Shown: positions 1 to 12,652, counted from the stretch's first letter. The stretch: 64,000 bases of DNA from Bacteroidia bacterium (GCA_026391315.1 JAPLDT010000088.1:6222-70221), one strand, 5' to 3'. Notes: a model not told the origin generated them from the letters alone. Numbers and translations are program-made.

Positions 1-385
1 TGCCAGAAGTAACTTTTTGTCGGTTTTGATTATAAATGTCTGTTTGCAGTTCGATCATGCGTGAACGCTCATCTTTATGAATAATTTCTGCCCTAACGGA
101 TAAAGTATCTCCAATCCTAACAGGTAAATGGAATTCAAGATTTTGTGCGAACCATAATGCGCCATCACCAGGTAGTTTAGTGCCAATTATTGTTGAAATA
201 AATGAAGCCCCTAGCATTCCGTGAACAACCGGCTTTTTAAAGCTCGTCTTTGCAGCAAAATTAGGATCTGTGTGAAGAAGATTGTCATCTCCTGTCAGTT
301 CTACAAAATGACGAAGATCATCTTCCGTAATAGTATGCTTAAGTTGGGCTGTAAGACCCATTTTTAACTCGTCGAATTTATACAT
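1..385 (-). CDS. MaoC-like (R)-specific enoyl-CoA hydratase/dehydratase domain protein; C-terminus cut by the window edge
   Basis: Own minus-strand translation from the ATG at 383-385 gives MYKFDELKMGLTAQLKHTITEDDLRHFVELTGDDNLLHTDPNFAAKTSFKKPVVHGMLGASFISTIIGTKLPGDGALWFAQNLEFHLPVRIGDTL. This looks like a hot-dog fold MaoC pattern. It is absent from the ORF track because it runs off the window. It has an 8-nt overlap with the stop of the upstream gene. Confidence 0.7.
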   Translation of the reverse strand, partial: MYKFDELKMGLTAQLKHTITEDDLRHFVELTGDDNLLHTDPNFAAKTSFKKPVVHGMLGASFISTIIGTKLPGDGALWFAQNLEFHLPVRIGDTLSVRAEIIHKDERSRMIELQTDIYNQNRQKVTSG

Positions 386-989
386 TATTTATTTCAGATT
401 TGTAAGTTGCCAATTTAATTCTATTTCCAATAACGCGTGCAGGATTTCCTGCAACAATCGAGAATTCTGGAATTATGGAGGAGACAACCGACCCGGCACT
501 TATTACTGAACCTTTGCCAATATGCGTACCTGAGAGTAATATACAAGAAGCACCAATCCACACGTTATCTTCAATTACCACGCTGTATTGTTCATCTAAA
601 TAAGTGATAGATTTAGCAGAATGTCCTTGATTTAAAATTGGCAGATCAATTTTTTCAGTGTTGTGATTGGCAGATCTTATATAAGACGATCGGGCAATGC
701 CAACATAATCTCCAATATAACAGCCATATGATTCGGCAATTTCAAGTATAGACCCATCTCCTAAAATAAATTCCTTGCCAACATGAAGTTTGTCATTACA
801 GATTATGTTTGATTTACACCCAAAATAATGTGCATTATGGATGCCATATTGTCTACTCCAATAGGCAATCCTAATTTTATTCCCAATATATGAATTAGGG
901 TACCCAATTATCAAAGCCTTGAAAATGGCTGAAAATTCTGATATAAAAATTGAGAATACCTTTCTAATATTTCTTAAAATTGGCTTCAA
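378..989 (-). CDS. Hexapeptide-repeat (left-handed beta-helix) acetyltransferase
   Basis: 203 aa. The C-terminal stretch VWIGASCILLSGTHIGKGSVISAGSVVSSIIPEFSIVAGNPARVIG is typical of LbH sugar O/N-acetyltransferases. Confidence 0.8.
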   Translation of the reverse strand: MKPILRNIRKVFSIFISEFSAIFKALIIGYPNSYIGNKIRIAYWSRQYGIHNAHYFGCKSNIICNDKLHVGKEFILGDGSILEIAESYGCYIGDYVGIARSSYIRSANHNTEKIDLPILNQGHSAKSITYLDEQYSVVIEDNVWIGASCILLSGTHIGKGSVISAGSVVSSIIPEFSIVAGNPARVIGNRIKLATYKSEINNV

Positions 990-1090
990 ATTCTTTGATA
1001 TTTCACTTGATTCTAAAAGATTAATGATAATACTTACAACTCAAGCATTAATTCATGAAGGTCACATTTTTATTTTCGTATTAAAATTTT

Positions 1091-2074
1091 TCATAAATCT
1101 TGACGTTGTACTTCATATTCTGAAGGAGGTACAATACTCTGCAATGGTTTGCCTGTAAGAAAGCGAACGGCCTCTTCTGTGGCTTCAATTTCCATCCTGG
1201 ATCTGCAATCAATAGACATTGAACCCATGTGAGAAGTGAGGATACAACGTTCAATCTTGTTTAGTTCACCGTCATAAGGTTCCTGTTCGAAAACATCAAT
1301 TGCTGCACCAGAAAGATGGCCTGAATTTAACACTTCTGCAAGATCTTTCTCATTGATGATCCCGCCCCTTGATGCATTTATAATCATTGCATCAGACTTC
1401 ATCATCAGTAATTGTTCACGACGGATCATATTCTTAGTCAGAGGAGTTAATGGTATATGTAGGCTAATAATATCTGCTTTATGATAAATTTCGTCCTTGC
1501 CCACCCATTCGAGTTTTAGTTCGGGTACAAGTTTGGGATTTGGTAGTATATCATTGACCAATACTCTTGGAGTGCCAAAGCCAGCCAAACGTGATAATAC
1601 ACGTCGCCCAATACGTCCCACACCGATAATCCCAATTGTTACTTCTGGAATTCGTCGACCAAAATGGCGTTGCCATTCTCCACGATGAAGTTGTGCATTG
1701 GACACATGGATATTCCGCAGTAGGCTTAACATGAGTCCAATTGTGAGTTCTGTAACTGCAGGAGCGGGTGCTTCAGGCGTATAACAGACTTGAATACCGC
1801 GTCGCTCGGCTGCCAATAAATCCACGCCATCAAGACCTACTCCTACACGTGAAATAAGTTTAAGCTTGTTAGCACGGCTCATAACTTTGTCGGTGATCAG
1901 CTCAGTCCCTGCAATCAAAACATCGAAATCTGTTATCATTTCTGCAAGTTCATCTTCCTTAAGCTTACGGCCGATCGGATTGATCAGGTATTCGATACCT
2001 GCGGCTTCAAGCAATTCGATCGGAAGGTGGTTTTTGTCACCGAATGGAACGGTCGTAATTAGGACTTTGTACAT
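1091..2074 (-). CDS. D-isomer-specific 2-hydroxyacid dehydrogenase family (phosphoglycerate dehydrogenase-like)
   Basis: 327 aa. NAD-binding motif GIIGVGRIGRRV. It also has the catalytic-domain layout ASRGGIINE...AAIDVFEQEP...TSHMG. Confidence 0.8.
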   Translation of the reverse strand: MYKVLITTVPFGDKNHLPIELLEAAGIEYLINPIGRKLKEDELAEMITDFDVLIAGTELITDKVMSRANKLKLISRVGVGLDGVDLLAAERRGIQVCYTPEAPAPAVTELTIGLMLSLLRNIHVSNAQLHRGEWQRHFGRRIPEVTIGIIGVGRIGRRVLSRLAGFGTPRVLVNDILPNPKLVPELKLEWVGKDEIYHKADIISLHIPLTPLTKNMIRREQLLMMKSDAMIINASRGGIINEKDLAEVLNSGHLSGAAIDVFEQEPYDGELNKIERCILTSHMGSMSIDCRSRMEIEATEEAVRFLTGKPLQSIVPPSEYEVQRQDL

Positions 2075-2080
2075 AGCGTT

Positions 2081-3877
2081 TTAATTATTTTGATGAAGTG
2101 ATTTTGTAGTAGTTAAGATATTTTTCAACAACTCAACTGGATTCTTCACTGTACGGGCGAATCGGTTACAGAAACAATCCCGTACTTCTTGAATGTTGGG
2201 CTGATTCCACCAGCTGGGTACATCATCCCAAATTGCGGCTACTTTGGCAGCTGCAGATTCGGGAGTTTCATGGAAGATGCCAACTTCTTTAAGCCGATTG
2301 AAATAGGGAATGGCTTCATCACGAAGTTCCCAATATTCAGGATTCCAGAATATTATTGTTGGAATATTCAAGGATAGGGACTCAAGAAATGTTGTGGCGT
2401 TGTAAGAGGAAATATAGAGTCGGGAGTGTTTGAGGAGGGACGACATTGATGTTTCACCATTATCTAACCTCACATTTGGAAAGCGGTCATTCCATCTTTC
2501 TTTTTGATTCCAACCCAAATCTTGGCTGTATAAACGAACTAATAAGCTATAACGTAATTTAGAGGGTAATGCAGCGGTAAAACGGCATTGGTCTTCAAAA
2601 TAGCTTAGCCATTGGGACGAAATAGGTTCTGCAGATAATTTATAGCTTTGTCGAGGATATACAACAGTAACTAGCAGCAAATCTTTGCCCACCGACTTTT
2701 TCTTCCTAACAAGCGTTGGATTTTTCATATTAAAGGTTGGTTGTACATTTAGATCCCGAATTTTATCCCATCCCCAGGTTAGGTATTTATCTGATATTTT
2801 AATTTCATGATCTTCATTAACTACAAATTTCGATATACCATATCCACCTCCGTGTTGCCCAATTACAAGGGGCATACCTTCTTCTACTTTAGTGGCCGCC
2901 CATGCTTTGAAAATATCACTGCCAATATGTGAGTTGGATGTAAAACAGAAGCTTGGATTCTTAGGCCATTTGAGGTTTTTGCATTGTTCGCTTAGCTTCT
3001 TATATCCCTCAAGATACGAAGTTGGAATATTGGCAGGTATCATTTTTCTTGAAATTTCGTCAAATTTAGTACTGTTCTTATCTGAAAGAGTCCACTTTCG
3101 AAGAGAAGGATTCGGAATCTCTTGCGGTGTTTGCGTTGAATGCCAATGCTTTGGGAATTGACCTAGCTTTAACTGCAATAAAAAGTCCTGCTGAGTTGGG
3201 AGATAAGAAGAGATAATAAGCGCCTCATTATCGCTGACAATTTTTTGCGAAATCCAAGCTGAAGTTTTTATTAAACCATTTTGAAGCTGTTTTCGAAAAG
3301 TCATTCCATTGGCAATGTACTTTGATGTTGTAACCAATGAATCACTGTTTTTCAGGTTTTTATAGGGTACTTCTTCAATTGATATATCTGTAAAACTCTT
3401 TAACAATTGTCCGTAAATTGATTCGTTCCAAATATCATTGGCAAATAACAGGGGGAATTGGTCCATATCATTTGGGATATACTGTTGTGGTGTTGTTTGA
3501 AGAATATTTACACCATTAATTTCAAATCGCTGAATTGCCAAATCTATCATAGACCAACGATCAAACAACATTTGGACAAAGTATCCAAGCCAGGGGCCTA
3601 TCAAAATACGCCAATAGCGAATGGAATGATTGACATTATGAATTTTGTTAAGTTTTTCCGTCAATTCCAGTATCAATTCTTCATATAGTTCTTGCAAGTA
3701 TTTATAGTCATTAAAAAGCTTCTTGCGATCATTCCAATGATATGGCATCATCTCGGAGTCTAGATTTTCCCAAACAGCTTTGCGGTTGTAAAGCTTGCAC
3801 CATTCACCTAAAAAAAGTACAGGGCGGTCAGATTTCCATGTTTCTTCAAGTGCAGTTGTTATTAGGAATCGGTTCAA
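2081..3877 (-). CDS. Putative transferase, LIC12162-like family (family name recalled, not verified)
   Basis: 598 aa, no TM segments. The N-terminus FLITTALEETWKSDRPVLFLGEWC matches my recollection of the LIC12162 (TIGR04331) family found beside sialic-acid genes in Leptospira O-antigen loci. It lies adjacent to the CBS-neuC-neuB-neuA genes. Confidence 0.45.
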   Translation of the reverse strand: MNRFLITTALEETWKSDRPVLFLGEWCKLYNRKAVWENLDSEMMPYHWNDRKKLFNDYKYLQELYEELILELTEKLNKIHNVNHSIRYWRILIGPWLGYFVQMLFDRWSMIDLAIQRFEINGVNILQTTPQQYIPNDMDQFPLLFANDIWNESIYGQLLKSFTDISIEEVPYKNLKNSDSLVTTSKYIANGMTFRKQLQNGLIKTSAWISQKIVSDNEALIISSYLPTQQDFLLQLKLGQFPKHWHSTQTPQEIPNPSLRKWTLSDKNSTKFDEISRKMIPANIPTSYLEGYKKLSEQCKNLKWPKNPSFCFTSNSHIGSDIFKAWAATKVEEGMPLVIGQHGGGYGISKFVVNEDHEIKISDKYLTWGWDKIRDLNVQPTFNMKNPTLVRKKKSVGKDLLLVTVVYPRQSYKLSAEPISSQWLSYFEDQCRFTAALPSKLRYSLLVRLYSQDLGWNQKERWNDRFPNVRLDNGETSMSSLLKHSRLYISSYNATTFLESLSLNIPTIIFWNPEYWELRDEAIPYFNRLKEVGIFHETPESAAAKVAAIWDDVPSWWNQPNIQEVRDCFCNRFARTVKNPVELLKNILTTTKSLHQNN

Positions 3878-4014: not shown

Positions 4015-4365
4015 CTATAAGTTAAATTTTTCACTCATGTATTTCACAATATTTATCACATCCGATAATTCGTTATTTTCATTTAAAACAGGAACTAAAG
4101 TTATACCTTGTTTAAAGTAAAGCATTAGTTTATTATCATCAAATTGCATTAGATATTTATAACCTGGATTTATGATGTTTTTTACTGGTGATTTAATATT
4201 AGTCCCTTTTAGTAGGGCCCGAAGAATATCGCCTTCACTTAATACCCCTACGACTCGTTTATTGTTGTTAGTTACGACAACACAACGAGAGGCATTTAAT
4301 TCTATCATTTCGATTGCGTGCTCAATTAATTGAGTATCCAATATAATATATTTAGCAAGTTCCAT
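4015..4365 (-). CDS. CBS-pair domain protein
   Basis: 116 aa. Two CBS-like halves are visible (VVVTNNNKRVVGVLSEGDILRAL and LVPVLNENNELSDVINIVKYM). The stop is 4 nt from the neuC-like start. Confidence 0.65.
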   Translation of the reverse strand: MELAKYIILDTQLIEHAIEMIELNASRCVVVTNNNKRVVGVLSEGDILRALLKGTNIKSPVKNIINPGYKYLMQFDDNKLMLYFKQGITLVPVLNENNELSDVINIVKYMSEKFNL

Positions 4366-4368
4366 AAT

Positions 4369-5523
4369 TTAGTATGTAATATCTTTAACAATGAGTTGGT
4401 TATCAATTTCCGTATTTGTTAAAATATTTAGAATCCTTTCTGAAGATTTCCCATCACCATAGGGATTTACACAATTGGCATCAACAAAGTTCTTAAATTC
4501 TGGACTCAACGCTTTTTGTAATGAACTTAAAATATGTTTTTCGTTAAAATCAGCATTAATTATATTAATTCCCTGTTCTCTTCCAAGTTGTCGGCGTCCA
4601 AGATTAATTGCGGGAGTTTTAAAAGTAGGTGCTTCTAATAATCCTGAACTAGAATTTCCAACTAATACCTTAGCATATTTTAAGAAACCTAAGTAGTCTT
4701 GCCGTTTAATATTTGAAAACATATAATGTTCTCCGGTTAAGAATTTCTCGATACCTTCTCTCACTTTTACCGAACCTGCATCATTGTTTGGAAGTATGAC
4801 AATCTTAGGTAGTGATATTTTATTCACTGCTTTCATTGTTTCTTCGATCTGCTTGTCGGCGATGTCGAATTCTTCTGTTACAGGATGTTGAACAATCATC
4901 ATGAAATCTCGGTTCAAATCAAAATTAAACCGTTCTTTGATCTCTTCTTTTGAGGTATAATAGCCGGACACTAACTCATCCAGTTGAGGTGCACCTACAT
5001 TAAATACACGGAATTCTTCCTCTCCTAATTTTAGCAAGCGTTTTCTTGCATCTTCATTCGATGCGATATGAATATGAGCAAATTTCCCGATGGCATGACG
5101 AGCCATTCCATCGATGTTGCCAGACCGTTCACCTGCCTGAATATGCATGACAGGAATATATGCATATCCTCCGGCAATGGCCCCCATTAATTGTTCCCCT
5201 CTGTCTCCAGCCAGTACAATCCAGTCAGGTTTGTCGCTTGCCAAAATATCTGCAAATGATGAGAGGAAGATCCCTAACGATTTAATTTGAGTAAAATGGT
5301 TATAACCATCAATTGACATATTAATTTTGTAATCTACCTTAAATCCATCGTTCTCAATTTCTTTAATAGATTCTCCAAAGGATGGGAGTAGGTGCATATT
5401 TGTGACACATAAACAGTATGTAAACTCCTCACTGGATTCAATAAGCCTTAATAAGGGTCTTATGTAGCCCCATTCACCCCTTGATCCGGTTAGAAAGAGT
5501 AACTTTCTTTTTTTTCCATGCAT
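4369..5523 (-). CDS. neuC: UDP-N-acetylglucosamine 2-epimerase (hydrolysing), NeuC/LegG type
   Basis: 384 aa. The N-terminal LFLTGSRGEWGYIRPLL and the GDRGEQL and NSSSGLLEAP motifs are typical of hydrolysing 2-epimerases. It lies immediately upstream of neuB. Confidence 0.85.
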   Translation of the reverse strand: MHGKKRKLLFLTGSRGEWGYIRPLLRLIESSEEFTYCLCVTNMHLLPSFGESIKEIENDGFKVDYKINMSIDGYNHFTQIKSLGIFLSSFADILASDKPDWIVLAGDRGEQLMGAIAGGYAYIPVMHIQAGERSGNIDGMARHAIGKFAHIHIASNEDARKRLLKLGEEEFRVFNVGAPQLDELVSGYYTSKEEIKERFNFDLNRDFMMIVQHPVTEEFDIADKQIEETMKAVNKISLPKIVILPNNDAGSVKVREGIEKFLTGEHYMFSNIKRQDYLGFLKYAKVLVGNSSSGLLEAPTFKTPAINLGRRQLGREQGINIINADFNEKHILSSLQKALSPEFKNFVDANCVNPYGDGKSSERILNILTNTEIDNQLIVKDITY

Positions 5524-5526
5524 AAT

Positions 5527-6552
5527 TTATTCAAAATCACTCCAAGTTAATAATATATTTTTTCCAATGTCTTTTTTTGCCTTTTTCCCGAGTACCTCAT
5601 CCATTCTATGCGATGGAATGCCAGTTCCAGGTCGTTTTGTCCAGATCATTTTTTCGGAGATTATCTCACCTTTTTTAATTTCTTCTACACTAACAATACT
5701 CCTGAAAGCCCACTCCCTAATCTGTACTTCCCTCTGGTGAATCTTTTTTTCATTACCCATGGCAGCTTCTATTTTACGAATACCATCACACAGTAAATGA
5801 AGTTCTTGAAAATCAATAGATACACTTTGATCTGGACCCGGTGTGCGCTTATCTAATATTACATGTTTCTCTATTATAGCTGGCCGAAGTACTGTTGCTG
5901 CCAAACATGTATATATGTCTGGTGTATGATCTGAATGACCAATGATTGCTTTAGGAAAGCGAGTTTTCATTTCGGAAATAACTCCAAAATTAACATCCTC
6001 ATATTTGGGTGGGTACTCAGAAACGCAATTTGTCATTGCTAATTTAACTCCATAATCGGTTAATGCTTTATAGGTACGATAAATTTCCTCATAACTACAC
6101 ATCCCCGTAGAAACAATCATCGGATTTCCAAGATCGGCTATCTTTAGTAAGGAAGGCACATCTGTCATTTCTCCTGACCCAATTTTAAAAATATCTAGCC
6201 CAATTGATTTTAGTTCAACTGCCGCCTTATAACTAAATGGTGTGCACATGTACTTAATTCCAATTTCATTGCAGAATACCATCAGTTCCATGTGATTTTC
6301 AAGACTTAATGCATTCTTAACGAGAAAATCATATAAAGGTGTTTCAAAATTATCACTTTTAGGAACATCTTGAAGCATCTCTTCATAAGGCAAGTGATGT
6401 TGAAATTTTATGGCACTCGCGCCAGCTAATTTAGCTTGGACACACATTTCTCTAGCATCGTCCATATTCCCCATATGGTTATCACCTGCTTCTGCAATGA
6501 TAAACACAGGATGATTGGATCCAATTTTTACTTTATCTACTAAGATTTCCAT
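5527..6552 (-). CDS. neuB: N-acylneuraminate (nonulosonate) synthase with C-terminal SAF domain
   Basis: 341 aa. It shows FIIAEAGDNHMGNMDDAREM, AGASAIKFQ and a C-terminal SAF-like RSIVSVEEIKKGEIISEKMIWTKRPGTGIP. Confidence 0.9.
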   Translation of the reverse strand: MEILVDKVKIGSNHPVFIIAEAGDNHMGNMDDAREMCVQAKLAGASAIKFQHHLPYEEMLQDVPKSDNFETPLYDFLVKNALSLENHMELMVFCNEIGIKYMCTPFSYKAAVELKSIGLDIFKIGSGEMTDVPSLLKIADLGNPMIVSTGMCSYEEIYRTYKALTDYGVKLAMTNCVSEYPPKYEDVNFGVISEMKTRFPKAIIGHSDHTPDIYTCLAATVLRPAIIEKHVILDKRTPGPDQSVSIDFQELHLLCDGIRKIEAAMGNEKKIHQREVQIREWAFRSIVSVEEIKKGEIISEKMIWTKRPGTGIPSHRMDEVLGKKAKKDIGKNILLTWSDFE

Positions 6553-6582
6553 ATCAAATTATTAAATATGAATACATTAAAT

Positions 6583-7260
6583 TTATAAATCAATTATGCA
6601 GTTAGCTAATTTTAAATCAAATTCAGTATCTATATCGATAACAGATTTTTCATTCATAATAAGCAAAGCCGAATATTTGTCGTAAAATATCTGTTTTTCT
6701 TTGAAAAATTTAACAGAACAACCATAAAATCCTCCAGAGTTAAAATAAACGGGGGGGAAAGACTGACGTGGTTTTGACATAAATTCTGGCATTAGATAAT
6801 TAAGTAAACCAGATTCATCACGGATAAGATAGTCAGCTGGATGATGCATAACCTTTGTTACACCTAAAACTGATTCACTCCCTGATTTCAAAAGATCGAC
6901 TCCTTGTCTCATCTCATTTATAGTTCTGAATGGCGCAGTAGGTTGTAACAGTACAAAATGAGTTAATGCAAATTCAGTTTTAGCCAGATAGTCTAAAACA
7001 TGATTAACAACTTCAACCTGAGAAACATTGTCGCCACATAAATGCTCAGGTCTTTTGAATGGGACTTCAATTTTCGAATATTTTTGACTCAATTCTATGG
7101 CACTTTCAAGATCAGTGCTCAAAATTATTTTATCGAAAACTTCTGATTTAGATGCTATTTCAAAAGTATGTTGGATTAATGGCAAACCACCTAAATTGAG
7201 CATGTTTTTACCAGGTAATCCTTTAGAATTAGCCCTAGCAGTAATAATAGCAACAACCAT
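6583..7260 (-). CDS. neuA: Acylneuraminate cytidylyltransferase (CMP-nonulosonate synthetase)
   Basis: 225 aa. The N-terminus VAIITARANSKGLPGKNMLNLGGLPLI is the CMP-NeuAc/KDO synthetase signature. Confidence 0.85.
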   Translation of the reverse strand: MVVAIITARANSKGLPGKNMLNLGGLPLIQHTFEIASKSEVFDKIILSTDLESAIELSQKYSKIEVPFKRPEHLCGDNVSQVEVVNHVLDYLAKTEFALTHFVLLQPTAPFRTINEMRQGVDLLKSGSESVLGVTKVMHHPADYLIRDESGLLNYLMPEFMSKPRQSFPPVYFNSGGFYGCSVKFFKEKQIFYDKYSALLIMNEKSVIDIDTEFDLKLANCIIDL

Positions 7261-8426
7261 TATATTGTTTGCATTAATAGATTGATTGTGTCTAATTGTT
7301 TATTTAATTCTGGCTGGGTTGTATTGACGTAGATAGGAATAGCAATAGAGCGATTGAGCAATTTGGCCGTTCTATGCCATTGAGTTTTCCAATTATCTCT
7401 ATATGCCTTTACATTTGTGAACATATGATTCCATGTTCCTGCAAAATGCCAGTCAATTGCATCTGGTATGTTCTTTGTTGAATATCCTGCAGTTTTGTAT
7501 CCATTTAAGAATTTTTCTGCAAATTTGGCCTGTTCAAAATTAAAAATAAGTGTATCACCCAGATCACCAATTTCGTCAGTGATTTTTCTGTACGAAATTT
7601 TATTTTTGTCAATATTCTGTTTTAAGAATGACTTATGTTCCTTACTTTTTTTTACAATAAAATCAAGTCTCTTTAGTTGTGCAATACCTACTCCACCTTG
7701 CATTTCAGTCATTCGATAATTCATCCCTGCTATACTCCTGGTATCTCTTCCTCTCGGAAATGCAGGATTACTTTCGTGGCCGTGATCATGATATTCCTTC
7801 GCATATTTATAGATTGACTGATTACCTGTAACAATCAGGCCGCCTTCACCGGTTGTAATTGTTTTTGCAAAATCAAGACTAAAGATACCTGCATCACCTA
7901 TTGTCCCAACATATTTCCCGTTATAGGTCGCTCCTAAAGCCTCACATCCATCTTCCAGTACGGGAATTTTATACTTGTTTGCTATTCCCATAATTTCATT
8001 CATTGATGCCGGATTTCCCAACATGTGAACCGGTACAATTAGTTTCGTATTAGCCGTGATAGCATTTTCAAATTCCAACGGATCCATATTGTATGTGTCA
8101 TCTACATTAACAATTACAGGAATAGCTCCAATGGCAAGAATTGATTCAACGGTTGCGACGAAAGTATGCGCTTGAGTTATAACTTCATCTCCAGCCTTAA
8201 CACCCATTGCTAGCATAGCAACCAATTGAGCAACTGTACCAGATGTTACTGCCTGAGTATATTGGCAATTGAATTTCCGAGAAAATTCATTTTCAAATTC
8301 TCTTACTCTATAGCGGCCATTACGCAAATTATCAAAACCATGTGGGAATAATACTCCATTACTAGTTTCGAAAATATCAATCAATTGTTCTTTCTCTTCT
8401 TTCCCAATTAATTCGTATCCAGGCAT
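7260..8426 (-). CDS. DegT/DnrJ/EryC1/StrS-family PLP aminotransferase
   Basis: 388 aa. The PLP-lysine region is SLDFAKTITTGEGG. It also has GDEVITQAHTFVATV. The stop shares 1 nt with the neuA start. Confidence 0.85.
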   Translation of the reverse strand: MPGYELIGKEEKEQLIDIFETSNGVLFPHGFDNLRNGRYRVREFENEFSRKFNCQYTQAVTSGTVAQLVAMLAMGVKAGDEVITQAHTFVATVESILAIGAIPVIVNVDDTYNMDPLEFENAITANTKLIVPVHMLGNPASMNEIMGIANKYKIPVLEDGCEALGATYNGKYVGTIGDAGIFSLDFAKTITTGEGGLIVTGNQSIYKYAKEYHDHGHESNPAFPRGRDTRSIAGMNYRMTEMQGGVGIAQLKRLDFIVKKSKEHKSFLKQNIDKNKISYRKITDEIGDLGDTLIFNFEQAKFAEKFLNGYKTAGYSTKNIPDAIDWHFAGTWNHMFTNVKAYRDNWKTQWHRTAKLLNRSIAIPIYVNTTQPELNKQLDTINLLMQTI

Positions 8427-8430
8427 AATT

Positions 8431-9483
8431 TTACATTTTTTTGATTAATTCAATAACTTTTTCTTTCGTAAAAATTGATCTCCAGTTTTTCCCGAAAGCA
8501 TTTTCTAAAGGCCTCTCATTCTTTAATGTGGCATCGGCGATTCTATTTATTTGTTCTAATGAAATTTCGGGTGTAATTATTTTGGGAAGTCTTACATTAT
8601 ATTTTTCCAAAATTTCTTTAAATTTAGATACTTCAGGATAATATTCTGCTAATTGATTAAAAGCTATGCATATTGAAAATCCATGATGTAGGTTCAAGAC
8701 TAAACTTAATCCATAAGATAATGGGTGGCATATCCCAACATTTGAATTTGCAATTGCTATACCTCCCATTGCAGAAGCGACCTGCAATTTTTCTAAATTC
8801 ATTTCCCCAAGAAATATTTCTTCCATCATATTCAAGGACTTTTCGGCAAAAGCAATTGTCATTTCGTCATTTTGACTTCCTCTTAGCGATTCAACATTGT
8901 GCACATAGCAATCCATCGCAGTATATATAAATTGTTCATTGGGAACAGTTGTTAATAGGTCAGGATCAAGAATGACCTGATCGTAAACGCTGTGATCAGA
9001 ATTTATTCCTAATTTTTTTGTCTTACTTGTCATTACGGCTGTCCTTGTAAACTCCGCTCCAGTACCTGCAATTGTGGGTATTCCGATTTTATAAATAGGT
9101 GCATTTTTGACTAAATCCCACCCCTGATAATCCTCGGCACTACCAGGATTTGTTAATAATATAGAAATAGCTTTTGCAATATCTAAGGTACTCCCACCTC
9201 CGATACCAATTATGACGGAGGGTCGAATCGCTTTTATTTTCAGAGTTTCAATTATTCCATCAATATACTCTGAATGGGGTTCATTTGTAGTATCAACAAA
9301 TATTACCGTGTCATTTTCTAATATTGGTAATTTGTTTGTAAGAGAAATGCTTTTAAAAAAATGATCAATTAAAAAAACAACATAAGAATTACTATTTTCT
9401 CTCTTGAAGGAGAGTAGTAATTCTAATTCATTTATAGAGCCAGAGCCAATAATGTAGTATTGAACAAGTTTTGAGTTTTTCAT
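8431..9483 (-). CDS. Iron-containing alcohol dehydrogenase family protein (KdnB-like candidate)
   Basis: 350 aa. It has the Fe-ADH nucleotide/metal motifs GIGGGSTLDIAKA, DCYVHNVE and HPLSYGLSLVLNLHHG. It is paired with the downstream aminotransferase. Confidence 0.75.
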   Translation of the reverse strand: MKNSKLVQYYIIGSGSINELELLLSFKRENSNSYVVFLIDHFFKSISLTNKLPILENDTVIFVDTTNEPHSEYIDGIIETLKIKAIRPSVIIGIGGGSTLDIAKAISILLTNPGSAEDYQGWDLVKNAPIYKIGIPTIAGTGAEFTRTAVMTSKTKKLGINSDHSVYDQVILDPDLLTTVPNEQFIYTAMDCYVHNVESLRGSQNDEMTIAFAEKSLNMMEEIFLGEMNLEKLQVASAMGGIAIANSNVGICHPLSYGLSLVLNLHHGFSICIAFNQLAEYYPEVSKFKEILEKYNVRLPKIITPEISLEQINRIADATLKNERPLENAFGKNWRSIFTKEKVIELIKKM

Positions 9484-9811
9484 ATTTATTGATTTCTAAT
9501 GTTATGGATATTTGATGAAATATTTTTTAGTCTGACAATTCCACTATCAAACTGGTGGTTAAGTTTAATTGTCAATTAATTTACAAATTTAATGGGTTCT
9601 GAATTCTTCATTATAATTCTAAATTGTTTATGCGGATAGTCTATTACTGTAGTTGAAATCTAATCATAAACTATTCCTGACAAACACAACCTCATCGGTT
9701 ATAGGATCAACTTCTATAATCATGCAACTAATCTTTCCCGTTAATTGTAAAGATGAATGTAGGGAGGCTATACACATAACTATTACTCGAAATCCTTTAT
9801 GCCAAGAGTCC

Positions 9812-11359: not shown

Positions 11360-12652
11360 TCATTTTAACCAAATAATGTTATTACGAAGGAAGTTTGCTC
11401 CAAAAAGAGCTCTGATTTGACCATGTAATTGTATCCCATTCGTGTCTCTTACCGCATGGATAGGAAATATTTCCCAGAAACGTTTCTGCAGGATTTCATC
11501 GTCTTCTTGAGGCTGCCAGGAACCATTGATGCGCTCAGCCATTTCGATAACGACATCACGAATTTCTTCAGAAGTGTTTTCGTTGAGTTCTATGCCCTTG
11601 GAGGTGAAATCCGAAGTTTGCAGGCTGAACCCAACTTTACGATAGAAAATTTCCCTAAGTGTCAATTCTCTCCTTTCCTCAACCAAAATATGATGTTTCG
11701 TGATACCAAGAAATTGATTACTGAAAGTAAATAAATATCCCAGTGGAACCATATTTACATATACTACTGGCCGACGAAATATGAGAGGAATCGCATCGAA
11801 ACCGGTACCAACTGAAATACAAAAATCGCACTTAGCACCCAAATAGATGTCCATAAAATCATTACGCATTCCATTGGTAGCATAATCAATTACCTTAGGA
11901 TGATTACTTTTTAGAGCATCTTTGACATGAACTCCCATTCTTATCACGAAGTAGTCTCGATCCGCAAGTTCCTCTACAGCAAGAATATATTTTTCAATAT
12001 TACTGTCTCGGAAGTTATGATAATTGCAGTCAGCACCAGATAGGTGTGCATTCAGATACTCACTGTCGCGTACAATTAAACAGACAAATTGAGCATCAGT
12101 AGAAATACCCATATTTCGAAGTCCATCTTCACCACGAGCCTCTTCTTCATTTGTAAATAAGAGATGTGCAGGGAATCGATCTAGTAGATTGTGCACATCA
12201 CGATCATTCTGTGTATTTCTCCCAACCTCATGAATTGTACCACCAGGAATCATCTTATTAATAAAATCTATAGGAGCCAAAATCCAAGTAGGCCATATGC
12301 GGAGAGACCGTTTCCACATGGTGGTCAATTGATGATTGCAGATAGGTTTATGAGCTAAATAAAAAAGATTAAAATGGTATTGAATGGGCTTGTTGATGCC
12401 TGCATCACGTTCGCAGAGGTATAACTCGGTATTGGCAGCAAAGTGGCCAATGCGACAACTGTTCAACCCTCCCAGTCTTACAAGCAGCCAAGGTCTGACC
12501 ATACGCATCACGAACACAACCGGGATTGCAATTATGTATAAAGGCAACATTAGGAGAATATGTAAGGCATATTTCATTTTTCTGAATAGTACTATTTTTC
12601 CCCCCTTATGTATTTGTGTTATCTGTTGCTTAAAAAAAGTTGGAATATTCAT
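11360..12652 (-). CDS. Membrane-anchored hypothetical protein; possible TIGR04372-like glycosyltransferase (recollection only)
   Basis: 430 aa. It has one N-terminal TM helix (LHILLMLPLYIIAIPVVFVM) followed by a soluble domain with RIGHFAANTELYLCE. It has no GT-A DxD or obvious GT-B signature that I can recognise. Confidence 0.35.
   Translation of the reverse strand: MNIPTFFKQQITQIHKGGKIVLFRKMKYALHILLMLPLYIIAIPVVFVMRMVRPWLLVRLGGLNSCRIGHFAANTELYLCERDAGINKPIQYHFNLFYLAHKPICNHQLTTMWKRSLRIWPTWILAPIDFINKMIPGGTIHEVGRNTQNDRDVHNLLDRFPAHLLFTNEEEARGEDGLRNMGISTDAQFVCLIVRDSEYLNAHLSGADCNYHNFRDSNIEKYILAVEELADRDYFVIRMGVHVKDALKSNHPKVIDYATNGMRNDFMDIYLGAKCDFCISVGTGFDAIPLIFRRPVVYVNMVPLGYLFTFSNQFLGITKHHILVEERRELTLREIFYRKVGFSLQTSDFTSKGIELNENTSEEIRDVVIEMAERINGSWQPQEDDEILQKRFWEIFPIHAVRDTNGIQLHGQIRALFGANFLRNNIIWLK

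Follow-up and report, generated by a model that had tools for sequence, protein, structure and literature searches.

Sialic acids and the related sugars of bacteria are important signals at the cell surface, and we know of no amine at the tail carbon among their known chemical forms. In Neisseria meningitidis (SiaA/SiaC/SiaB) and E. coli K1, N-acetylneuraminic acid (Neu5Ac) is made by the NeuC-NeuB-NeuA pathway. A pathway to a different sugar acid, 8-amino-3,8-dideoxy-octulosonate (Kdo8N), was reportedly described in Shewanella oneidensis by Gattis et al. in 2013. Its two enzymes are represented in PDB by 5k8c (KdnB, 3-deoxy-alpha-D-manno-octulosonate (Kdo) 8-oxidase, EC 1.1.3.48) and 5k8b (KdnA, Kdo8N transaminase, EC 2.6.1.109). 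Kdo is converted directly to Kdo8N in Shewanella, ahead of activation with cytidine monophosphate (CMP), and Kdo8N was described as exclusive to Shewanella (PMC4402001) and, for that genus, as a hallmark (PMC6357163); its C8 gives a 13C signal near 44 ppm (PMC6357163). Here we analysed 64,000 nucleotides (nt) of DNA from a Bacteroidia bacterium (GCA_026391315.1 JAPLDT010000088.1:6222-70221), hereafter the window, in which positions are counted from the first letter. The organism (genome label G000) belongs to the Prolixibacteraceae. In its window, genes for a KdnB-like and a KdnA-like enzyme stand directly before neuA, neuB and neuC on the minus strand, and comparison of these genes suggests that a surface polysaccharide of the organism probably contains an amino-sialic acid not described before, most likely 9-amino-Neu5Ac. 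A literature search returned nothing linking KdnB/KdnA homologues to nonulosonate genes, and amino-Neu species go unmentioned in the main text of a mass-spectrometry survey of nonulosonic acids (PMC8157484).

A six-gene cassette with a KdnB/KdnA-like pair

Six intact, close-set open reading frames (ORFs) were found on the minus strand from position 9483 to 4015, with spacings of 4, -1, 30, 3 and 3 nt. The first (8431-9483, 350 amino acids (aa), PF00465 and PF25137) encodes a KdnB-like metal-dependent alcohol oxidase/dehydrogenase of the iron-containing alcohol dehydrogenase (Fe-ADH) family, and the second (7260-8426, 388 aa, PF01041 DegT with 257 bits) a KdnA-like aminotransferase dependent on pyridoxal phosphate (PLP). 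They are followed by neuA for a CMP-nonulosonate synthetase (6583-7260, 225 aa, cytidylyltransferase family PF02348), neuB for a phosphoenolpyruvate (PEP)-condensing nonulosonate synthase (5527-6552, 341 aa, PF03102 and SAF) and neuC for a hydrolysing UDP-N-acetylglucosamine (UDP-GlcNAc) 2-epimerase (4369-5523, 384 aa, PF02350), which scored 382.5 bits against TIGR03568 (cut-off 235.9). The last gene encodes a stand-alone CBS-pair protein (4015-4365, 116 aa, PF00571). The initial annotation had listed the first five of these genes, and all five ORFs, their order, strand and coordinates were recovered exactly as given, including the 1-nt overlap of the aminotransferase stop with the neuA start. 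This overlap, TAATG, suggests translational coupling of the kdnA-like gene and neuA. We estimate a probability of roughly 0.6 that these six genes are a self-sufficient cassette whose product, a CMP-activated amino-sialic acid, would be built into a Wzx-dependent surface polysaccharide.

When the window Fe-ADH was compared with all PDB sequences, the highest scores were obtained with the KdnB orthologue 3rf7 (325 bits, E-value (E) 6e-96) and Shewanella KdnB 5k8c (309 bits, E 4e-91), and the next-ranked structure had an E of 1e-23. It is 43% identical to Shewanella benthica KdnB over the full length. The nucleotide motif GGGS is present (GIGGGSTLDIAKA), and in an alignment of 91 family members G95-G97 and the metal ligands D191, H195, H253 and H267 were invariant, as was the family hallmark YQGWDL in the 91 KdnB homologues. 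Only Fe-ADH families matched the protein (PF00465 with 97 bits), and all NCBIfam alcohol-dehydrogenase equivalogs scored far under their cut-offs. Automated annotation labels these proteins Kdo 8-oxidase. For the window aminotransferase, KdnA 5k8b was the best match among all PDB sequences (254 bits, E 2e-74), followed by a match with 179 bits (E 1e-51). Along its full length, the window aminotransferase is 36% identical to S. benthica KdnA, and the two share the PLP lysine, aligned in FAKTIT/VKTIT.

The reading of the pair as KdnB/KdnA-like in the initial annotation was thereby strongly borne out, KdnB and KdnA leading the solved structures by a wide margin. Its argument that a GGGSxxDxAK motif favours a true Fe-ADH agrees with the GGGS motif, the four metal ligands and the exclusive Fe-ADH family matches. 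It had proposed a family placement of 8431-9483 and 7260-8426; in the comparisons made here, both proteins are relatives of KdnB and KdnA and not cyclases or ordinary alcohol dehydrogenases.

A second pair linked to kdsA in the same genome

The genome carries a second KdnB homologue on contig C50, which is 39% identical to the window KdnB. The genes there (L084:894-5075) run in the order kdnA-kdnB-kdsA, with kdnA at L084:894-2105 and kdnB at L084:2114-3190; next comes a gene that joins a fructose-6-phosphate-aldolase/transaldolase domain to a KpsF-like CBS pair. The C50 pair matched 5k8c with 371 bits and 5k8b with 448 bits (full length), compared with 309 and 254 bits for the window pair. It adjoins the only kdsA of the genome; the housekeeping kdsB is on contig C99. 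In a sample of 121 Prolixibacteraceae genomes, a KdnB homologue was found in 20 (G000 included), all of the C50 type with 39-43% identity to the window protein and genus-conserved, and the window-type KdnB was found only in G000. Because of these distributions and the kdsA linkage, the C50 pair appears to behave as an inherited function of the lipopolysaccharide (LPS) core, and the window pair as an accessory gene set in a variable locus. Since the C50-type pair occurs in these 20 genomes, Kdo8N is probably not confined to Shewanella.

It was also observed that no KdsD/KpsF arabinose-5-phosphate isomerase scored above the cut-off in the 100%-complete G000 genome. The best match of this search was the CBS part of the kdsA-adjacent aldolase-CBS fusion (L084:4050-5075), which might supply arabinose-5-phosphate by an aldol route rather than by isomerisation.

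The window enzymes belong to NeuB-linked clades

A KdnB set was assembled from 80 genomic relatives of the window KdnB, together with Shewanella and about 100 Flavobacteriaceae loci recovered via a conserved peptide, and neighbouring genes were counted within 8 kb of the KdnB gene. The arrangement was kdnA-kdnB-kdsB in Shewanella and kdsB-HAD-kdnB-acyltransferase in Flavobacteriaceae, and the remaining loci had mostly NeuB and a DegT gene. The maximum-likelihood tree of KdnB separated a Kds-linked group (30 rows, approximate likelihood-ratio test (aLRT) 89), comprising C50, Shewanella, Chitinophagaceae and Flavobacteriaceae, from a NeuB-linked group (61 rows, aLRT 91) that contains the window KdnB. 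The closest relative of the latter was L001 (aLRT 99). The NeuB-linked group includes a large clade (aLRT 100) from Campylobacterota, Nitrospinota, Leptospira, Prochlorococcus, Chlorobiota and others. NeuB was encoded near 39 of the 61 NeuB-linked KdnB genes, and neither kdsA nor kdsB near any of the 61. Forcing the window KdnB into the Kds clade cost 58 log-likelihood units and was rejected by the approximately unbiased (AU) test (p 0.008), for which the group was defined only after inspection of the tree.

The aminotransferase tree resolved three lineages: genuine KdnA (Shewanella and C50, aLRT 99), the window type, and a third, unrelated DegT lineage that occurs in Campylobacter concisus-type cassettes. 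The window-type clade consisted exclusively of NeuB-linked loci (aLRT 98) and was sister to genuine KdnA (joint aLRT 99). Since both trees place them outside the Shewanella/C50 clades, the two window enzymes are, as judged from their sequences, sister paralogues of the Kdo8N enzymes and not orthologues of Shewanella KdnB/KdnA. The columns beside the metal ligand H253 (P254) differ between the Kds-linked and NeuB-linked KdnB clades, and a two-residue insertion near position 156 is a further clade-specific feature, as are positions A243, K132 and 324-326. Such residues would fit an altered pocket.

NeuB-linked KdnB homologues were also present in a Patescibacteria metagenome-assembled genome (MAG) and an Anaerolineales MAG in which KdsA above the cut-off was absent, while control genomes were positive. 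The KdnB of these MAGs falls in the wider NeuB-linked clade, not in the window's own subfamily.

The flavobacterial loci (L091-L210, about 100 loci; e.g. L090:8524-11631) carry a conserved housekeeping arrangement of kdsB, HAD phosphatase, kdnB and PlsC-type acyltransferase genes, with no aminotransferase gene nearby. KdsB and KdnB are apparently fused in one ORF of ~610 aa in many of these genomes. This arrangement suggests a modification of Kdo in LPS, possibly N-acylated Kdo8N.

Related cassettes retain neuA, neuB and a ManNAc supplier

Seven loci of the window subfamily were examined, including the window itself; the KdnB proteins of the six relatives are 59-75% identical to that of the window. 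In all seven, the neighbours of the pair include neuA, neuB and a gene supplying N-acetylmannosamine (ManNAc). This supplier is neuC in the window, L211, L212, L213 and L295, and nanE, accompanied by a NeuA-phosphatase fusion, in L088 (KdnB 63% identical) and L294 (59%). The six-gene order of the window was found in L211, L212 and L213 (64-71%), except that L213 lacks the CBS gene, and a shuffled order, Fe-ADH-NeuB-NeuC-DegT-NeuA-LIC12162, was found in L295 (68%). LIC12162-family (PF27859) genes adjoin the related cassettes in L086, L088, L212 and L295, and none were seen in the Kds-linked loci. The tailoring genes near the related cassettes are variable (hexapeptide and GNAT acyltransferases, NodS-like methyltransferases, carbamoyltransferases), and their products may conceivably modify the new amine.

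The inference of the initial annotation that the pair acts on a nonulosonate rather than on Kdo is thus supported by four lines. The kdsA-linked C50 pair is the better Kdo8N orthologue in the same genome; both window enzymes fall in NeuB-linked clades; in the six related loci the pair is accompanied, in varying gene order, by neuA, neuB and a gene for ManNAc supply; and members of the wider NeuB-linked KdnB clade occur in genomes without KdsA above the cut-off.

Two further arrangements were noticed during this survey. In Leptospira idonii (L089, 10001-19149), an Fe-ADH, a family 2 glycosyltransferase, NeuB, NeuA, a NodS-like methyltransferase, two carbamoyltransferases and a window-type KdnA (49% identity) are encoded together, which would represent a more heavily tailored form of the predicted amino-nonulosonate pathway. 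A second, very widespread cassette type, exemplified by L086 and L087 (Campylobacter concisus) and L074 (Desulfovibrio falkowii), combines a KdnB-like Fe-ADH with a DegT protein of the other lineage, a NeuA-like gene and an uncharacterised protein of 522-555 aa with a weak nucleoside triphosphate-transferase signal; some loci also have NeuB, methyltransferase, radical S-adenosylmethionine and LIC12162 genes. Because NeuC and NanE are lacking, this type may make a different sugar.

Neu5Ac as the likely base sugar

The best PDB match of the window NeuA was the N. meningitidis CMP-Neu5Ac synthetase 1eyr (E 2e-27), and that of NeuB was N. meningitidis NeuB (207 bits, compared with 146 bits for PseI). 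Against the family models, NeuB scored 299 bits with TIGR03569 and 223 bits with the lower-scoring PseI model. It is the sole NeuB of the genome. We propose that NeuC supplies ManNAc. The CBS protein resembles the CBS part of KpsF/GutQ and is kept directly 3' of neuC in L211 and L212; possibly it has a regulatory role.

Legionaminic and pseudaminic acid were considered as base sugars and rejected. Both are 9-deoxy sugars without a terminal (9-)hydroxyl. No dehydratase of PseB/LegB grade was found in the whole genome, where the best PF02719 match was partial with 59 bits. Because of this and the single NeuB, the 9-deoxy acids are unlikely as base sugars, and legionaminic acid, which the initial annotation had listed among possible assay substrates, is an unlikely one. 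The NanE found in the related cassettes is specific for ManNAc-6-phosphate. Both supply routes, NeuC and NanE, are therefore ManNAc-specific, and the common denominator of the cassettes would be Neu5Ac with a free 9-hydroxyl plus the pair. For the NanE-type cassettes we propose a path via the 9-phosphate, from which the NeuA-fused phosphatase would free the 9-hydroxyl.

Proposed pathway

In the proposed pathway, NeuC would hydrolyse and epimerise UDP-GlcNAc to ManNAc, which NeuB would condense with PEP to Neu5Ac. The KdnB paralogue would then oxidise Neu5Ac at its hydroxymethyl end, C9, to the aldehyde 9-oxo-Neu5Ac, which the KdnA paralogue, with PLP and an amino donor, would convert to 9-amino-9-deoxy-Neu5Ac, and NeuA would activate the aminated product to the CMP sugar. 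Oxidation and transamination are placed ahead of CMP activation after the Shewanella precedent (PMC4402001). The same final product would result if the pair worked on ManNAc instead, at C6 and ahead of the condensation step. The CMP sugar would probably be transferred to the polysaccharide by the LIC12162-family protein encoded directly downstream (2081-3877, minus strand, 598 aa; TIGR04331 with 569 bits, cut-off 225), which is our candidate transferase; a literature search on LIC12162 found nothing relevant. Adjacent acyltransferase genes, perhaps including the hexapeptide-repeat acyl/acetyltransferase at 378-989 (minus strand, 203 aa, PF00132), may provide for acylation of the new amine; the WbbJ- and NeuD-like matches of the latter protein were below cut-off. 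A natural 9-amino-9-deoxy-N-acetylneuraminic acid, possibly further N-acylated (e.g. 9-acetamido) by such neighbouring acyltransferases, is our tentative assignment of the product, to which we give slightly less than an even chance.

Direct observations are the gene content, the homologies, the paralogous relation to a second, Kdo-linked pair, and the conservation of the sialic-acid gene linkage. From them we infer which substrate is used, which carbon is aminated, in what order the steps occur and which protein is the transferase.

The surrounding polysaccharide locus

The cassette is part of one extensive polysaccharide locus on the minus strand, which also includes wza, wzz, rmlA/C, genes for heptose and WbpB/D/E-like genes. 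As seen from the ORF list and the sequence, the cassette's first gene is separated from wzx by a non-coding gap of 328 nt (9484-9811). It is likely a cassette boundary or an internal promoter region, because all gaps within the cassette are at most 30 nt. Downstream of the cassette, the LIC12162-family gene is followed by genes for a 2-hydroxyacid dehydrogenase and the hexapeptide acyltransferase, and past the window start by those for a MaoC-SDR fusion, an FkbH-domain protein, an HpcH aldolase, a methyltransferase and a KdsB-like cytidylyltransferase.

Several of these neighbours appear to form modules of their own. The phosphoglycerate-type 2-hydroxyacid dehydrogenase, the hexapeptide acyltransferase, the MaoC hydratase-SDR (short-chain dehydrogenase/reductase) fusion and the FkbH-domain protein (TIGR01686, 286 bits), encoded in window 1-2074 and L214:3689-6606, look like a glyceryl/hydroxyacyl decoration module, within which no acyl carrier protein was seen. 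Just past the window start (L214, G000:C96:904-3402), an HpcH/HpaI pyruvate aldolase, a methyltransferase and a KdsB-like cytidylyltransferase form another module, and comparable HpcH/KdsB-like modules were found at L086:20176-21077 and L211:17266-18776. This looks like provision for a second CMP-activated 3-deoxy-ulosonic acid, derived by an aldolase, in the same polysaccharide locus. At window 11360-12652, between wzx and an RmlD-like gene, a putative glycosyltransferase of the TIGR04372 family (231 bits) without a Pfam match is encoded; besides LIC12162, it is the second orphan transferase family of the locus.

Alternative readings of the pair

Several points weigh against a 9-amino-Neu5Ac cassette. 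The amino-sialic acid chemistry is deduced by comparing genes, and a natural 9-amino nonulosonate was not found in the searched literature. The 299 bits of NeuB lie under the NCBIfam equivalog cut-off of 399.65. The two large KdnB groups have moderate support in a quick tree (aLRT 89 and 91), the AU group is post hoc, and the KdsA-less MAGs are small and possibly incomplete. Fe-ADH-fold enzymes can oxidise secondary alcohols as well, which bears on the proposed C9 site, and the KdsB-like cytidylyltransferase ~11 kb further along the same locus allows a reading in which Kdo8N is made for the capsule.

The secondary-alcohol argument leads to the possibility that the pair aminates the sialic acid at another carbon, such as the secondary alcohols at C7, C8 or C4, to give another amino-Neu5Ac isomer. 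This shares the sialic-acid gene linkage with the C9 proposal; the superfamily has secondary-alcohol oxidoreductases, glycerol dehydrogenases being among the matches of the window Fe-ADH, and the columns beside H253 differ between the clades. We nevertheless consider it unlikely, as the only characterised members use the terminal primary alcohol of a 2-keto-3-deoxy acid (5k8c/5k8b entry names; PMC4402001) and the YQGWDL hallmark and catalytic residues are unaltered. It is also conceivable that the product is unrelated to a nonulosonate, for instance an amino-acyl or amino-alcohol substituent or an amine on an ulosonic acid from the HpcH aldolase, given the many tailoring genes of the locus (2-hydroxyacid dehydrogenase, left-handed beta-helix acyltransferase, MaoC-SDR, FkbH, HpcH aldolase) and the occurrence of HpcH and KdsB-like genes near the cassettes in L086 and L211 too. 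However, neuA and neuB always accompany the pair and these tailoring genes do not, and the close homology to ulosonic-acid-specific enzymes points to an ulosonic acid as substrate; we regard such a product as quite improbable. The HpcH aldolase/KdsB-like module was also tried as a source of the substrate and rejected, an HpcH homologue being found within 8 kb of none of the 80 KdnB loci.

A second Kdo8N pathway reserved for the capsule, in which the pair would act on Kdo and merely be co-located with the sialic-acid genes, seems a little less probable still. In its favour, both proteins are KdnB/KdnA homologues, and the KdsB-like cytidylyltransferase of the locus (G000:C96:904-1647), which would activate the product, scored above the cut-off of NF009905 (299 bits). 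Yet a better Kdo8N orthologue pair already stands beside the sole kdsA on C50, and the KdsB-like gene travels with the HpcH aldolase and the methyltransferase as a separate module. In the Pfam tables, neither an HpcH nor a KdsB-like gene is near the cassette in L212, L213, L088, L294 and L295, and the KdsB-like matches near KdnB loci (n=80) came exclusively from Kds-linked ones. Neither kdsA nor kdsB is within 8 kb in any of the 61 NeuB-linked loci, and the AU test rejects Kds-clade membership. The initial annotation had further offered a sugar-phosphate cyclase of the DHQS/DOI-synthase (3-dehydroquinate/2-deoxy-scyllo-inosose synthase) type, making an aminocyclitol together with the aminotransferase. 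The superfamily fold is common to both enzyme types, and 2-deoxy-scyllo-inosose aminotransferases are among the weaker PDB matches of the window aminotransferase. The Fe-ADH itself had no match to a DHQ-synthase or cyclase family in Pfam or NCBIfam and no cyclase among its 33 PDB matches, it possesses the Fe-ADH metal ligands, and its KdnB match is ~70 orders of magnitude ahead of any other structure. These matches effectively refute the cyclase, which retains hardly any chance. Amination of Neu5Ac by the pair, most likely at C9, is the reading that we favour.

Implications

If the 9-amino-Neu5Ac proposal is true, the cassette would define a new natural class of sialic acids with nitrogen at C9. 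Synthetic 9-N-acyl sialic acids serve chemists as esterase-resistant stand-ins for 9-O-acetyl sialic acid, and the predicted sugar would be their natural counterpart. The related cassettes, which span many phyla, would in that case point to a sugar that is common but has been overlooked. Chemoenzymatic glycoscience, in which C9-nitrogen sialic acids are made by synthesis, would benefit from a biosynthesis of 9-amino sialic acids. In this genome the Kdo8N enzyme pair has been duplicated, one version being tied to a sialic-acid pathway, and the presence of both versions offers a clean natural experiment in substrate re-targeting.

Comparison with known systems

With the Kdo8N pathway of Shewanella oneidensis, the window cassette shares the two enzyme families, their catalytic motifs and an adjacent cytidylyltransferase gene, and also the proposed logic, by which a 2-keto-3-deoxy sugar acid is oxidised and transaminated before CMP activation. 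It differs in that its proteins are paralogous and fall in sister clades, in that their gene neighbours are neuA, neuB and neuC rather than kdsB/kdsA, and in its inferred substrate, the nine-carbon Neu5Ac. Moreover, the cassette is accessory and its polysaccharide locus variable, unlike an LPS-core function that is conserved throughout a genus.

The Neu5Ac pathway of N. meningitidis and E. coli K1 uses the same three families, NeuC of the window being above the equivalog cut-off, and the meningococcal enzymes are the best solved relatives of the window NeuB and NeuA. Unlike that pathway, the window has two extra enzymes upstream, putatively coupled to neuA in translation, and a divergent NeuB; neuD, neuS and a known sialyltransferase family are missing, and a LIC12162-family protein is present instead.

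The uncharacterised Campylobacter concisus-type cassette (Fe-ADH, methyltransferase, DegT, 522-aa protein, NeuA, NeuB, LIC12162) has a KdnB-like enzyme in the same NeuB-linked super-clade and the same linkage to NeuA, NeuB and LIC12162. Its aminotransferase, however, belongs to the separate DegT lineage rather than the KdnA lineage, and it has the additional 522-555-aa protein and lacks both NeuC and NanE, whereas the window cassette joins a KdnA-lineage aminotransferase to NeuC.

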